The position numbers were made by a program, and so were the translations under genes. A DNA stretch of 40,201 nucleotides. It comes from a virus. Lineage: Duplodnaviria > Heunggongvirae > Uroviricota > Caudoviricetes. The stretch's first letter is position 1; every line of letters starts with the position of its first letter. Positions 29,335 to 33,977 of this stretch are shown in pieces. A model generated the notes under the pieces. The model saw only the letters and a program-made list of their open reading frames with translations, was not told the origin of the DNA and did not search any database. The stretch spans positions 1 to 40,201 of the IMG/VR virus record IMGVR_UViG_2744054909_000002; one strand, given 5' to 3'.

Positions 29335-30239
29335 CGGATCACCCCATAGGCCCAGTCAGTGTTGTTGAAGTCCAGATCTGGCTTGACAGCGCGCTGCTCA
29401 CCTCCGGCGTTACGCTGCATTGTCAGCTTGTCCCACTGCTTACGCAGGCTTTCGGGACTCAGGATGTTGGTCTGCCAGAAGTGGTGTTTGCTAGCCCAGT
29501 CATACAGCGCGCAGATGTCCTGGTGCGACCGGTCGTCTATCTGGCGCATCAGGCGAACAGTGTTAGACCAGGAGGTCATGTCCGGGGCTTTGCAGGTTGG
29601 GTTAATCAGCTTCACCCTGGAGGAAATCCACTTAGCTGTCTCGAGGTCTTCAGCAGAGCCCCACTTCGCACCGGATGGTGTGTAGACCGCAGCTTCAGGA
29701 TGAGTTGATAAAAATTTCTTCAGACGTGCGTCAGAGGATTCGTCAGAATTCTCGGACGAAGATCTTTTAATACTGTTCTTGTTCTTGTATTGGGTGTCTA
29801 CCGTTTTCGGGAAGGTTATTCCTGATTTCGGGAAGGATTTTCCCGTTTTCGGGAATTTTCTTCCCGTTTCCGGTTTGTCTAAAATCCATGCTGAAAGGTC
29901 AGTGTTTACACCGACGATTTTCATCATGCCCTGCTTCTGTGAAAAGATGATTTTGCGTTCTGCGAGAGACTTAAGCGCGTCCGATACATGCGTATCGCTC
30001 AGGCCCGTAAGCTCGGCAATAACCGTATTTGTCACGCGGTCCTGTTTCTTGTTCCAGCCGTAGGTAAGCCAGATCACCGCCTCAAAACATTGCCATTCCC
30101 GGCCTGACAGTCTCAGGCGAGGCTTAAGCTGTTGGATCTCGTTAGCGACCTTGGTATACCCGTTCGACAGGTCGGCCATACGACCTCCCGGTTGTTCGGT
30201 TTTATTTGGGAAATTGATTATTTCAGCGGTGTTTGACAT
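29331..30239 (-). CDS. O: Replication initiator protein O
   Basis: N-terminus MSNTAEIINF and C-terminus ..KPDLDFNNTDWAYGV resemble lambda O; internal FPKTGKSFPKSG repeats encoded by iterons. Confidence 0.85.
   Translation of the reverse strand: MSNTAEIINFPNKTEQPGGRMADLSNGYTKVANEIQQLKPRLRLSGREWQCFEAVIWLTYGWNKKQDRVTNTVIAELTGLSDTHVSDALKSLAERKIIFSQKQGMMKIVGVNTDLSAWILDKPETGRKFPKTGKSFPKSGITFPKTVDTQYKNKNSIKRSSSENSDESSDARLKKFLSTHPEAAVYTPSGAKWGSAEDLETAKWISSRVKLINPTCKAPDMTSWSNTVRLMRQIDDRSHQDICALYDWASKHHFWQTNILSPESLRKQWDKLTMQRNAGGEQRAVKPDLDFNNTDWAYGVIR
29801..29880. repeat. Replication origin iterons: four repeats (consensus ccgttTTCGGGAAgg) at 20-21 bp spacing inside O, with adjacent AT-rich tract at 29760-29800
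   Basis: Repeat cores at 29808, 29829, 29849, 29869; arrangement as ori-lambda inside the O gene. Confidence 0.65.
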
Positions 30240-30323
30240 ACTGTTCTCCGCAATTACGCACTGTTTTTGCACCTGAAAGCCGTTGGTGTTCGAGCACCGC
30301 GGCTTTCGCCATTTTTGAACCGG

Positions 30324-30863
30324 TCATATAGCCCCCAGCATAATCTGCACCATTTCCATCAACGGACCGGTTAACCCAGGGTCAACGCGATACATCTCCA
30401 CGATCCCCTCGCTCAACTCTTTCAGCTTCTGATGACGTGGCGCATCCATTGCGACAGCAATCTTCGCTTCGCTGGTTTCCTTCTCCAGCCTTGCCAGACG
30501 AGCCATTACGTTGTCTTCTGGTAGCAGACGATTGCGGTATTCAATCGGCAGGACAGCGAGGATTGCCGGAGTCAGCTGGCGAACGTTTTCGCGGTACCGT
30601 TCGCTGTTGAAATGGTTATCCAGAAAGCGGAAAAGCTTCTGACGCTGTCGGCTGAGGTCATCAGGGAAAGTGATCTCGTCTCCCCCTTGAGCCTGGTACT
30701 CTTCGATGATCAGAGCAGAAACGACATCCTGACCATCTACACCCGCCCACGCACGAACGGCATCGCGGATCTGGTCATGTTTATCTACCGAGACAGGTTG
30801 ATTGCGATTTATCATCGCAGCCGTTTGATATCCGCTATTTTGATGAAGTGATAGTGACTGCAT
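30324..30863 (-). CDS. YdaT-like protein (CII-position regulator)
   Basis: Position between cro-like gene and O; motif QLTPAILAVLP resembles Rac YdaT as recalled. Confidence 0.4.
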   Translation of the reverse strand: MQSLSLHQNSGYQTAAMINRNQPVSVDKHDQIRDAVRAWAGVDGQDVVSALIIEEYQAQGGDEITFPDDLSRQRQKLFRFLDNHFNSERYRENVRQLTPAILAVLPIEYRNRLLPEDNVMARLARLEKETSEAKIAVAMDAPRHQKLKELSEGIVEMYRVDPGLTGPLMEMVQIMLGAI

Positions 30864-30865
30864 GG

Positions 30866-31099
30866 TTATGCCCTCGCTTCCTGAGCCGGTAATCCATCCG
30901 TAGGGTTGAGGTACAAATCAGGGCGTAACTCATGTGGAGTTACACCTGTAGCATTGAAAATAGGAATGACACGGTTAGCCGGTACGAATCCATTGTCACG
31001 GTGACGCCAGTGACTGACCGTCATTGGGGATACATTGAGCTTTTCTGCTAAACGGGTTGCACCCCCTACGATGCATATTGCTTTATCAAGTGCTTTCAT
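30866..31099 (-). CDS. Cro-like HTH regulator (YdaS-like)
   Basis: 77 aa, HTH GGATRLAEKLNVSPMTVSHW; divergent from repressor; track ORF has spurious upstream extension. Confidence 0.65.
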   Translation of the reverse strand: MKALDKAICIVGGATRLAEKLNVSPMTVSHWRHRDNGFVPANRVIPIFNATGVTPHELRPDLYLNPTDGLPAQEARA

Positions 31100-31126
31100 A
31101 TTTGGCTCCAAGTAATAACGAACCAA

Positions 31127-31194
31127 ATTAAACATTATGTTTATGTTCAAGTCAACATTATGAATGTTGAGGCGATAAACTTTTAGTTTAGAAT
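31127..31194. promoter_or_regulatory. Divergent PR-like and PRM-like promoters with operator palindrome
   Basis: Minus strand TTGACT (31155..31150) -17- TTTAAT (31132..31127) for cro-like gene; plus strand TTGAGG (31167-31172) -16- TAGAAT (31189-31194) for repressor; palindrome tcaacatt-atg-aatgttga at 31152-31170. Confidence 0.5.
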
Positions 31195-31202
31195 CTTGAT
31201 AT

Positions 31203-31598
31203 ATGAGAAAAAACACACACCAAACAGATAACCCGCAGGTTCGGCGGTTAAATGAAATCATCGAGAAGAAGCGCATATCCAAAGCGGATATAGCGAGAAT
31301 CTGTGGTGTGAGCGCACAATCAGTCAACAACTGGTTTGTCAGAGGAGCGATAGGAAAAAGCTCAGCAATAAAACTTGCCGATGCGCTAGGCGTAAGTCTT
31401 GAGTGGGTTCTAGGTCAGGACGTGGATGCTAAGGACGGTTTGAGACACGACGAACGGAGACTGTTGGAACTCTATAATCAACTCCCAAACGAAGAAGAAC
31501 AACAGAACATGTTGCGGATCGTATCTCTACGGTTGAAAGAACTCGATGAACTGTACGCCAAGTACATGGGACGGCGGATTAAGGGGGATGGTGAGTAG
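31203..31598 (+). CDS. Phage repressor (XRE-family HTH, no peptidase domain; RacR/P2 C-like)
   Basis: HTH KADIARICGVSAQSVNNW; divergent from cro-like gene; no SD, ATG about 9 nt downstream of the -10, so probably leaderless like lambda cI. Confidence 0.75.
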   Translation: MRKNTHQTDNPQVRRLNEIIEKKRISKADIARICGVSAQSVNNWFVRGAIGKSSAIKLADALGVSLEWVLGQDVDAKDGLRHDERRLLELYNQLPNEEEQQNMLRIVSLRLKELDELYAKYMGRRIKGDGE

Positions 31599-31709
31599 CA
31601 CGGTAGTTAAAAGCTACTTACCCCTCAGATGTTTCTGTACCAATGGGATACATCTTAACGATATGCAAAATTCACTTACCAGTTAATTATCATTATATTG
31701 AGAGCTGAG

Positions 31710-32033
31710 ATGGGCGAACAGGTTGAAGAAGAAAAAAGTCAGGAAAGTGTCAATACAACAGCATTGACGCTATCAATATCAAGACAAGAATTTCGAGATT
31801 ATTTTCAACGCCTCGAAGAAAAACATGGCGAGATGGCCTGTCCGCTTTGTAAGCATACGCTTTGGGGAGTTCCTCCACGAGAAGATAGTCAAGACTATCC
31901 TGCAATAATTACCCTTCCTCTACCTCATTCAGCTGGCCGAGGTATATGGGCATTCCCTGTTATATGTGTAGAATGTGGTTTCATTGCCACATTTGCTGCT
32001 AACCGAGTATCACTAAAGGTTCGAGAGGGATAA
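31710..32033 (+). CDS. Cassette gene A: small zinc-ribbon protein (CPLC..CVEC), unknown function
   Basis: ATG 31710; two CxxC pairs about 45 aa apart; AT-rich; stop 2 nt before gene B start. Confidence 0.5.
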   Translation: MGEQVEEEKSQESVNTTALTLSISRQEFRDYFQRLEEKHGEMACPLCKHTLWGVPPREDSQDYPAIITLPLPHSAGRGIWAFPVICVECGFIATFAANRVSLKVREG

Positions 32034-32035
32034 CA

Positions 32036-32419
32036 GTGGCTGCAGTTTGCTTAGATCATCAATCAAGCTCAATTATTTCGATTGATCGGGTTGAAGTATT
32101 TGAGACCTTCCCAAAAATCGAAAATCATGTTGGCGATATTCCTTACACACTTGATGAATCCAGGATATTGTTGCTAAGGAACAGTGTTTCACATCCTGAT
32201 AGCTGTGTTGGGCTGAAAGCATTTTCTGTCGCGCTAATAGTGATGCTAGGTGTTATAGTGTGGTTAACAGGAGGTAAGGTTATGTACTATATCCCTCTTT
32301 ACGCAGCACTCATACCAGTAGCTTATTGGTTAGTTAAGATTGGATTTGCGTATTATGTAGTCAAAACACAAAAGTTACATGTTGACTCGAAATCGTTCTC
32401 GGGAAAAAATCATGGCTAA
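32036..32419 (+). CDS. Cassette gene B: small membrane protein (2 predicted TM), GTG start; internal in-frame ATG 32282 with perfect SD
   Basis: GAGGGA SD before GTG; hydrophobic segments AFSVALIVMLGVIVWL and YIPLYAALIPVAYWLVKIGFAYYVV; AGGAGGT at 32269-32275. Confidence 0.5.
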   Translation: MAAVCLDHQSSSIISIDRVEVFETFPKIENHVGDIPYTLDESRILLLRNSVSHPDSCVGLKAFSVALIVMLGVIVWLTGGKVMYYIPLYAALIPVAYWLVKIGFAYYVVKTQKLHVDSKSFSGKNHG

Positions 32420-32837
32420 CGATAACGTTAAAAATGTAGCTAAAAATGGACTACCTTTTCTAATTGTCTCCCTCATATGTGGTTATGCTACAGATGCTAT
32501 TCCTATCTTCTTTCCTGACGGTGAGTTTCGTGATTGGGCCTACAGATCTGTTCCTTTTCTGTCTTTGATTCTTCTTTTTGTAATCAAAACGTTAAAGGAT
32601 TTTGGTGGAATGTCATTTACAGGTCTGTTATTTACAATATGCTCAAGCCGAGAAAAGAAAAGGCTAAAGATCATTATGGATGACAATCACGCTAGTGATG
32701 CGACCATGCAAGCAGCAAAAAAACGTTATGACGAAATATTACGAAAAGAACTCGAGTTAAGCTCAAGGTTGCTGACCTACATTTCTCAGTGGTCGATCTT
32801 TAAGAAAGCACCGACCCCCCCATCATCTGTTGAATAA
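32412..32837 (+). CDS. Cassette gene C: membrane protein (2-3 predicted TM) with charged C-terminal tail
   Basis: ATG overlaps B stop (ATGGCTAA); hydrophobic segments LPFLIVSLICGYATDAIPIFF, VPFLSLILLFVIKTL, FTGLLFTIC. Confidence 0.55.
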   Translation: MANDNVKNVAKNGLPFLIVSLICGYATDAIPIFFPDGEFRDWAYRSVPFLSLILLFVIKTLKDFGGMSFTGLLFTICSSREKKRLKIIMDDNHASDATMQAAKKRYDEILRKELELSSRLLTYISQWSIFKKAPTPPSSVE

Positions 32838-32843
32838 AGCAAT

Positions 32844-32872
32844 AACCCAGTTACCGAACTGGGTTTTTTATT
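32844..32872. terminator. Strong rho-independent terminator (bidirectional candidate)
   Basis: Perfect 9-bp stem aacccagtt/aactgggtt with loop accg, then TTTTTTATT on plus strand; sits between convergent genes. Confidence 0.7.
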
Positions 32873-33074
32873 GCCCTTTTCTCACCATAGCAACCGCATC
32901 CCGCAATACCCACTTGTGAATGACGTTTCCCACTACCCTGCGCTTAGCCTCTAGACTATCCACAATCGCATCGCGGCTGATCACAATCCCGTTAGCTATC
33001 AGACTGACAACTGCGCCACCAATCTCCCCCGCAATAAACGCTGCGCGGTCTTCTTCCAGTTCGTCACGATCCAT
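32868..33074 (-). CDS. Hypothetical small protein (68 aa)
   Basis: GAGGG SD 6 nt before ATG; opposite strand between cassette terminator and PL-like promoter. Confidence 0.45.
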   Translation of the reverse strand: MDRDELEEDRAAFIAGEIGGAVVSLIANGIVISRDAIVDSLEAKRRVVGNVIHKWVLRDAVAMVRKGQ

Positions 33075-33186
33075 AACTCACCCTCATCGATTTTTTTATA
33101 ACCACAAAATAGACCACAAAACATACTACTCGTGCCAACGAGCGCAACCAACTAAACTTTTTGTTTATATAAAAACACTCATTATG

Positions 33187-33215
33187 TTGACACGCAAATA
33201 AACATTGTGTTTAAT
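33187..33215 (+). promoter_or_regulatory. PL-like early promoter for the recombination operon
   Basis: TTGACA (33187-33192) -17- TTTAAT (33210-33215); overlapping aacat-type operator-like motifs. Confidence 0.5.
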
Positions 33216-33458
33216 TACTCCATCAACACAACCACCAAAGCAGGACGCCCACGAAGAAGCCGTCCGGGGCATACGAAGACCGGAATGAGGTGGTGAGATT
33301 AACGCGCAGTAGGTTTGAAACGTTCCGCCAGCCTGGCGACAAGGGCAAAGCACAGAGTGAGCTTCGCGGTGGTGAATTGCAGAGTTAAAACGCTCAACCG
33401 TGAAGATCAGCGCCGCGGCACCACCAGCGAAGTTCACTCAGAAAAACTGGAGAACATC

Positions 33459-33665
33459 ATGGTTCATCAGCACTACGGTACACAGACAGTAAACCGCGGC
33501 GCAGTTCAGCCGGGGATGCTCGTCAAACACAAAGATTCAACCTGGACGGCATCAGCTAACGCTCGCGGACGTTTGTATCTGCATCGCGGCGTAGAAATGA
33601 CTTACACCAAGGATTTGCTGGTTGAAGTTTATCTGAACGGTCTGGGGCATGGACTCAGCCACTAG
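33459..33665 (+). CDS. Hypothetical small protein (68 aa), first gene of rightward early operon
   Basis: GGAG SD 7 nt before ATG 33459; track ORF start is an upstream TTG. Confidence 0.45.
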   Translation: MVHQHYGTQTVNRGAVQPGMLVKHKDSTWTASANARGRLYLHRGVEMTYTKDLLVEVYLNGLGHGLSH

Positions 33666-33675
33666 CGGAGGATGT

Positions 33676-33843
33676 CATGTTAGACAAGAAATGCGGATAT
33701 TGCGGCAAGCCGGTTAAAACGGAGGAAGTAATCAAGAGCACCCTTCTCTATCGCAACGGCTCACAGCTGGCGCGCAAAGAAAAAGAGTATTGCTCCAAAC
33801 GTTGCGCTTCGCACGACCAGATGGCTCACGAAGGCTAACGTAA
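33676..33843 (+). CDS. Small zinc-ribbon-like ORF, apparently frameshifted at an A6 tract
   Basis: GGAGG SD 5 nt before ATG; N-terminal CGYCGK; second Cys pair (CSKRC) is in the +1 frame after aaaaaa at 33779-33784. Confidence 0.35.
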
Positions 33844-33977
33844 AACCCGCGCAAGGCGGGATCTACGTCCGGTGGTACCGACCAAAGTTACACCGGAAAC
33901 AACATTAAAACCAAAGTTAACCCAATGGGCGCTATCAATGGTCCGGGGATTCTAACACCCAAAAATGAGGATCTCAC

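Follow-up and report, generated by a model that had tools for sequence, protein, structure and literature searches.

The 40,201-nt stretch analyzed here (IMG/VR virus record IMGVR_UViG_2744054909_000002, positions 1 to 40,201; hereafter, the window, meaning the whole stretch) is a Rac-like lambdoid Escherichia coli prophage that carries, directly downstream of its repressor gene, three small genes, denoted A, B, and C. These genes form an operon that is under strong purifying selection, sits inside the prophage immunity region, is exchanged there as a unit, and encodes a Cys4 zinc-ribbon protein together with two membrane proteins. By analogy with characterized systems, we tentatively propose that A-B-C may be a phage-exclusion module expressed in the lysogen, made up of a cytoplasmic zinc-ribbon component and a membrane effector, a reading that we hold with somewhat less than even confidence. 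What favors it is the position of the unit between the right and left operators (OR and OL), on the repressor strand and with no terminator predicted ahead of it; the finding that A-B-C follows a repressor at every locus examined despite the involvement of at least four repressor types; its modular exchange with exact boundaries, the same slot holding alternative low-GC cargo (including HicAB) in sibling prophages; the strong purifying selection, with coupling kept in all lineages; a soluble-plus-membrane architecture that parallels RexA/RexB; the presence of the A family at the head of two other types of repressor-adjacent cassettes, a modularity typical of sensor-effector conflict systems; and the rare, patchy distribution of the unit.

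A coupled, conserved, and exchangeable unit in the immunity region

The initial annotation of the window, made from its letters alone, placed the three genes in tight succession after the repressor and on the same strand, and their positions, spacing, overlap, and strand are confirmed by the list of open reading frames (ORFs) and by the RefSeq coding sequences; an identical E. coli prophage (L001, NZ_CP191804.1) has the same three coding sequences in RefSeq, all labelled hypothetical proteins. A, B, and C are translationally coupled, with a gap of 2 nt between the TAA stop codon of A (32031-32033) and the GTG start codon of B (32036) and an 8-nt overlap between B and C (ATGGCTAA), and 7/7 lineages preserve both the close spacing of A and B and the overlap of the B stop with the C start (ATGxCTxA or TAATG). 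The perfect 9-bp-stem terminator that had been proposed to close the unit was recovered as the hairpin AACCCAGTT-ACCG-AACTGGGTT followed by T6 at 32844-32865 (-17.3 kcal/mol; z = -4.4 vs. shuffled sequences), and it is kept in the 7 lineages, the window copy differing from the other six on both stem arms. Terminator prediction on the + strand found none between the repressor and position 32844, and a search of positions 30000-34000 against Rfam returned no family above threshold. The segment also proved as AT-rich relative to its flanks as the initial annotation had described it, with a GC content of 0.398 for the cassette vs. 0.508 for the window.

Each of the three genes is intact and collinear in all seven of the divergent lineages measured. 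Synonymous divergence (dS) between lineages is saturated, non-synonymous divergence (dN) ranges from 0.17 to 0.49, and dN/dS, where dS could be estimated, ranges from 0.03 to 0.24; that is, selection on A-B-C is strongly purifying. Long invariant motifs are found in each of the three proteins, and identical proteins are present on hundreds of assemblies. Hence, given their intact and collinear state across divergent lineages and the purifying selection acting on them, A, B, and C are real genes. One could argue instead that they are non-functional, i.e., ORFs that arose by chance or remnants in decay within AT-rich filler DNA, a view that the AT-richness of the segment and the label "hypothetical" attached to every product would seem to invite. 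The conservation data, including the many invariant residues and the conserved gene junctions and terminator, refute this view, and we assign it next to no probability.

The initial annotation also assigned the unit to the slot equivalent to that of rexAB, and the unit does lie inside the immunity region, between OR and OL. The two arms of a 43-nt inverted repeat flank a segment made up of the repressor, A-B-C, and a convergent ORF of 68 aa, and the promoters in both repeat arms face outward (TTGAC(T/A)-17-TTTAAT); as read from their sequence, the arms are OR/PR and OL/PL. Taken together, the operator bracketing, the genes driven by PL, the position of the PRM-like promoter, and the lack of a predicted terminator between the repressor and A indicate a layout that mirrors lambda cI-rexA-rexB-timm-OL. 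Co-transcription of A-B-C with the repressor would be the simplest reading of this layout. A conserved internal promoter upstream of A was considered and rejected, as the alignment is little conserved there and promoter-like matches number 8 vs. 5.5 +/- 2.4 in shuffled sequences; in a K. grimontii prophage, the gap between the repressor and A is only 37 nt.

Comparison with a sibling prophage (L002) defined the boundaries of exchange to the nucleotide, with DNA identity (99.5%) ending at 31597, in the repressor stop codon, and restarting at 32861, within the terminator. The slots of siblings hold alternative cargo of similarly low GC content (0.40-0.45), e.g., a 149-aa soluble protein with a 136-aa coiled-coil protein that has a C-terminal transmembrane (TM) segment, a 101-aa protein with a 217-aa coiled-coil/TM protein, or, in E. 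coli WEM25 (L029 4545-5934, NZ_CP061530.1), YoaK (32 aa), HicA, HicB, and a 141-aa soluble protein (phrog_19522), HicAB being found only in this WEM25 alternative cassette. The exact exchange boundaries and the other cargo in sibling slots indicate that A-B-C is a discrete, swappable module. The convergent 68-aa ORF belongs to the conserved backbone outside the cassette and is kept in siblings that carry other cassettes.

A-B-C is rare. The repressor of the window is present in 12 of 5426 complete E. coli genomes, five of these 12, among them strains TUM9803 and B18271, also carrying A-B-C, and elsewhere the unit was found in 1 of 50,697 phage records and in 0 plasmids. Homologues of A, B, and C came up in Enterobacteriaceae only (E. 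coli, Shigella, Citrobacter, Klebsiella, Kluyvera, Cedecea, and Enterobacter) plus coliphage PHB10, and the A profile gave no match among GTDB species-representative genomes. At every one of the loci examined from Kluyvera, Klebsiella, Cedecea, E. coli, and PHB10, A-B-C is downstream of a repressor gene, and these repressors are of at least four types, i.e., helix-turn-helix (HTH) proteins of 131, 124, and 132 aa and, in Cedecea, a 228-aa HTH-S24 CI. This rare and patchy spread fits accessory conflict genes.

A few additional observations concern the exchangeable slot. Two-gene alternative cassettes, each consisting of a soluble protein and a single-TM coiled-coil protein, occupy L002 3583-4445 and L003 3540-4504, and one of them terminates in a long (AP)n repeat. 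YoaK recurs in the Cedecea locus L005, where a gene of this family separates the CI repressor from gene A. In E. coli 1368KP (L030 3576-4404), tandem HTH repressor-type genes (138 and 131 aa) lie upstream of a cassette of the 101/217-aa type, which suggests a hybrid or duplicated immunity region.

The zinc-ribbon protein, its membrane partners, and the wider A family

Protein A has a variable acidic N-terminus, a helix (residues 25-39), and then a Cys4 zinc ribbon (C44, C47, C86, and C89), the cysteines being arranged in the two CxxC pairs that the initial annotation had pointed out (CPLC 44-47 and CVEC 86-89). Its AlphaFold2 (AF2) model, with a predicted local distance difference test (pLDDT) score of 72, shows a three-stranded ribbon around the second CxxC (strands 78-86 and 92-96), and structural comparison gave generic zinc-ribbon fold matches only. 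As judged from this signature and model, A belongs to the Cys4 zinc-ribbon structural class, with a predicted metal site. A also matches phrog_4293 (E 3.7e-7, 31.4 bits), as does an A-like protein of Yersinia phage vB_YenM_30.14 (E 6e-7); however, no function is annotated for this PHROG, and the match thus gives A a family name but no explanation. In an alignment of 40 members of the A family, the four cysteines are the only invariant columns, and P70, P72, and W80 are nearly invariant. The A profile, searched against 1.84 billion representative proteins, returned 46 matches (counted as representative clusters at 50% identity), nearly all of them stand-alone proteins of ~100-110 aa. A match to a multicystatin (P0051) in the A profile search was rejected as a repeat-summed false positive, and P0042 had no viral-contig relative. 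The 107-aa A and the unrelated 127-aa B share one 90% cluster in the protein collection, probably as a result of merged or mis-called ORFs (e.g., P0019, a 158-aa read-through of the end of B and C), and this co-clustering may be behind the lower number of A clusters returned.

That A is a Cys4 zinc-ribbon family leading other repressor-adjacent cassettes is a new finding of this study. Cassettes of what we call type 2 consist of A' and, behind it, two soluble proteins, namely B' (~90-105 aa) and then C' (124-135 aa), the latter a phrog_5954 protein with strongly conserved WHYHxG and LDYHPPF motifs; Yersinia phage vB_YenM_30.14 has such a cassette (genes 029-027), as do eight viral contigs (L022-L024, L025, L026, L027, L033, and L034). 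In type 3 (L028, L031, and L032), A'' has a single partner of ~160 aa downstream, in which an N-terminal domain is combined with one TM segment and a coiled coil. An A-like gene is directly 3' of a cI-like repressor in L012, L026, L027, and L031-L034. C' has no Pfam or PDB relative and may be an effector enzyme or toxin. PADLOC gave nothing convincing for the type 2 partners or the alternative cassettes of sibling prophages, the only matches being weak ones in the coiled-coil region of the 136-aa protein of L002 (best E 2.8e-4). Homology of B with B' and of C with C', which a common "FPKIE" string had brought up, was rejected (hhalign E 0.29 and 0.47, respectively), and B shows a weak resemblance to the type 3 partner over its first 40 residues (E 0.006), which is a hint only. 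The conserved zinc-ribbon A, its interchangeable partners, and the adjacency to repressors fit a common sensing or adaptor role coupled to variable effectors.

For the two membrane proteins, Kyte-Doolittle hydropathy agrees with the initial annotation, which gave B a soluble N-terminus and two TM helices, and C two to three TM helices and a charged tail. Specifically, B consists of a ~55-aa N-terminal soluble domain with the invariant motif PKIENxVGDIPY, a TM hairpin (~57-80 and ~84-108) whose turn, GGKVMYYIPLY, is invariant, and a C-terminal tail rich in Lys. C has TM segments at ~14-34 and ~45-65, a short hydrophobic stretch at 67-78, a conserved PxGxxRxWAYRxxP loop, and a ~60-aa charged helical tail rich in K, R, and E that ends in PTPP (model pLDDT 66); a comparison of B and C as possible paralogues was negative. 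The distribution of Lys and Arg favors an N-in/C-in topology for both proteins, which would place the N-terminal domain of B, the tail of C, and A all in the cytoplasm. The most conserved stretches of B and C include the turn of B and the loop of C given above, both of which are predicted to face the periplasm.

The initial annotation recognized no family for any of the three proteins, and this holds for Pfam, NCBIfam, PADLOC, and PDB sequence profiles, none of which gave a family match for A, B, or C. That is, profile searches, structure prediction, TM prediction, and a PADLOC check yielded no known family and two TM segments each in B and C, and homology of all three proteins to known structural or regulatory phage proteins was not found in Pfam, NCBIfam, PHROGs, or PDB. 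Family assignments were rejected where they were sub-threshold or unannotated only, such as the Rad50 zinc hook (E 0.032) and DUF7156 (E 0.0019, below its cutoff). A literature search by accession and keyword, with a coverage that excluded Brenes & Laub 2025 (Cell Host Microbe), found no description of the A, B, and C proteins.

Proposed phage exclusion and competing readings

Under the exclusion hypothesis, A-B-C would be an accessory ("moron") operon whose transcripts in the lysogen arise from the repressor promoter by read-through. B and C would be inner-membrane hairpins, with N and C termini in the cytoplasm, that form the membrane effector, while A, also cytoplasmic, would dock on the N-terminal domain of B and/or the tail of C and serve as a sensor or gate. 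An infecting phage might then be halted either by triggered membrane permeabilization (i.e., Rex-like abortive infection) or by blocked DNA entry at the inner membrane. Lysogenic expression, the formation of an A-B-C complex, and anti-phage activity are thus what we infer for this unit. A few considerations weigh against the hypothesis. Morons at such hotspots also encode virulence, regulatory, or unknown functions, which makes the slot position circumstantial, and the structure models of A and C are of moderate quality only. Homologues of A, B, or C with a role in defense, exclusion, or abortive infection (Abi) were absent from PADLOC, Pfam, NCBIfam, annotated PHROGs, and PDB, and PADLOC-DB v2.0.0, in a copy that dates from 2023 and has newer systems beyond its range, returned 0 defense families for the three proteins.

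Among known systems, A-B-C appears closest, by analogy, to RexA/RexB of lambda in its position and its pairing of soluble and membrane components. In both cases, the genes directly follow the repressor in the same orientation, within the immunity region and with a terminator before OL, and a soluble cytoplasmic component is combined with a polytopic membrane component (B and C have about four TM segments together). However, there is no sequence or profile similarity, and neither A, B, nor C matched Rex families in Pfam, PHROG, PADLOC, or NCBIfam at E <= 1. Further, A-B-C comprises three genes vs. two, A is a 107-aa Cys4 zinc ribbon whereas RexA is not, the membrane part of A-B-C consists of two two-TM proteins that each have a predicted cytoplasmic domain, and the lysogenic expression, ion-channel activity, and exclusion of superinfecting phage by membrane depolarization that mark RexAB would be predictions for A-B-C. 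Published work describes the interval between cI and N as a mosaic hotspot, which is occupied by rexAB in lambda and by bstA in the Salmonella prophage BTP1 (PMC8585504). Similar to A-B-C, bstA is located downstream of a prophage repressor, has an architecture conserved across diverse prophages and its own Rho-independent terminator, and is an accessory gene expressed in the lysogen, as A-B-C would be. BstA differs in being a single soluble protein at phage DNA replication sites with aba, a self-immunity DNA element; it is unrelated in sequence to the three proteins, and an element of this kind was not identified for A-B-C.

Alternatively, B and C might sit in the inner membrane as a constitutive complex of the superinfection exclusion (Sie) type that blocks the DNA-ejection conduit, with A as an assembly or regulatory factor and without cell death, a mechanism to which we give a fairly low probability. 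P22 SieA and T4 Imm block the assembly or function of this conduit in related phages, and B and C are small inner-membrane proteins whose conserved segments, if they face the periplasm as predicted, could contact it. To our knowledge, however, each of the characterized Sie proteins is a membrane protein that acts singly and has no zinc-ribbon partner in the cytoplasm, whereas A-B-C always includes one. That the A family also occurs with the purely soluble partners of type 2 points to an activity in the cytoplasm instead, and annotated PHROGs of the SieA/SieB/Imm type gave no match, the only similarities being weak ones to unannotated families (phrog_21392, E 0.04, for B; phrog_846, E 0.13, for C). 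SieA offers the precedent of a small, prophage-encoded, inner-membrane exclusion protein (PMC10883804), but it works alone, is located in another region of P22, and is not homologous to any of the three proteins. It is also conceivable, at a low probability, that B and/or C damage membranes and are restrained by A, as in a toxin-antitoxin (TA)-like or holin-like module that acts in prophage maintenance by addiction or in the timing of lysis or induction, and not against other phages. Class II holins and small membrane toxins share the layout predicted for B and C, namely two TM segments, N-in/C-in topology, and charged C-terminal tails; moreover, a sibling slot holds HicAB, and translational coupling fixes stoichiometry. 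However, none of A, B, and C matched holin families in Pfam/PHROG or type II toxin or antitoxin families, and the unit is located in the immunity region, next to repressor and recombination genes, instead of in a lysis cassette. Unlike class II holins, B begins with a conserved domain of 55 aa and C ends in a helical tail of 60 aa; C also lacks a dual-start motif because the candidate upstream in-frame start (ATG at 32379) is not conserved, with in-frame stops in 5/6 other lineages. In any case, such a module would overlap with the exclusion hypothesis since TA function and abortive infection are not mutually exclusive.

Finally, A-B-C might serve lysogenic conversion outside phage conflict (e.g., envelope physiology, stress tolerance, or colonization) or regulate the lysis-lysogeny switch, for which we see a fairly small chance. 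Morons expressed from prophages often serve host fitness, and nothing in the sequences of A, B, and C specifies anti-phage activity. There is also the precedent of bstA, which had earlier been tied phenotypically to virulence (PMC8585504). However, a role in the switch that is specific to one repressor is hard to reconcile with the four or more unrelated repressor types that A-B-C accompanies. Also weighing against this alternative are the great rarity and patchiness of A-B-C, its absence from plasmids and other islands, and the repeated linkage of the A family to repressors in distant phages with different partners.

Surrounding features and broader meaning

The repressor matches HTH_3 (2.9e-8) and Phage_CI_repr (1.6e-5) in Pfam and phrog_8/phrog_4 among PHROGs, and no S24 peptidase domain was found in it by the Pfam/PHROG search. 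Given the short distance from the PRM-like promoter (Table 1), the repressor mRNA would have almost no leader, similar to that of lambda cI. The genes divergent from the repressor encode a YdaS/Cro-like and a YdaT/CII-like protein (Pfam/PHROG). A simple promoter scan missed PR and PL because the -10 hexamer carries a T at position 2. Between ydaE and recE, there is a sub-threshold Rfam match to isrB, an Hfq-binding small RNA (33840-33936, - strand; 28.6 bits vs. a gathering score of 35, E 0.025). In the identical prophage L001 (positions 1-386), a Q-like antitermination gene is annotated as a pseudogene with an internal stop, and this prophage copy may consequently be defective for late gene expression.

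Table 1. Coordinates of the unit, of the surrounding immunity region, and of related cassettes (positions in the window unless a locus is named)
Feature	Position	Strand	Description
OR/PR region	31126-31168		One arm of the 43-nt inverted repeat shared with OL; palindromic AACATTATGTT-type sites
PR	within OR region	-	TTGACT-17-TTTAAT, divergent; read from sequence
PRM-like promoter	31167-31194	+	TTGAGG-16-TAGAAT; ends 8 nt before the repressor ATG
Repressor	31203-31598	+	131 aa; HTH_3 / Phage_CI_repr
Exchangeable cassette	31598-32860	+	blastn breakpoints vs. sibling prophage L002
Gene A	31710-32033	+	107 aa; ORF list, RefSeq CDS
Gene B	32036-32419	+	127 aa, GTG start; ORF list, RefSeq CDS
Gene C	32412-32837	+	141 aa; ORF list, RefSeq CDS
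Intrinsic terminator	32844-32871	+	9-bp stem, 4-nt loop, T-run; bidirectional in form; folding
68-aa ORF	32868-33074	-	phrog_3975 (E 1.4e-33), function unannotated; no Pfam match; converges on the cassette terminator
OL/PL region	33174-33216		Second inverted-repeat arm, 81% complementary to 31126-31168; AACATTATGTT-type sites
PL	within OL region	+	TTGACA-17-TTTAAT; drives kil / ydaE / recE / recT
Type 2 cassettes after cI	L012 3980-4979; L026/L027 3998-4961; L033/L034 4001-4951

In conclusion, the interval between cI and PL is, in this prophage, a precise exchange site filled with uncharacterized cargo, and A-B-C is one of many uncharacterized prophage morons, albeit one with an unexpected pattern at the level of the family. 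It is intriguing to hypothesize, although we consider it rather unlikely, that the A-type protein is the founder of modular, repressor-linked prophage immune cassettes in which a cytoplasmic zinc-ribbon sensor or adaptor would be combined with interchangeable effectors, namely two membrane proteins in type 1, two soluble proteins in type 2, and one TM/coiled-coil protein in type 3; the A-B-C unit of the window would then carry out Rex-like abortive infection with unrelated proteins. The exclusion hypothesis is cheap to test since the unit is ~1.3 kb long and has its own terminator. If true, A-B-C would represent a tripartite exclusion design of a zinc ribbon plus membrane proteins that has no relatives among known defense proteins, and a small Cys4 protein encoded right after a phage repressor would provide a search handle for systems with different effectors.

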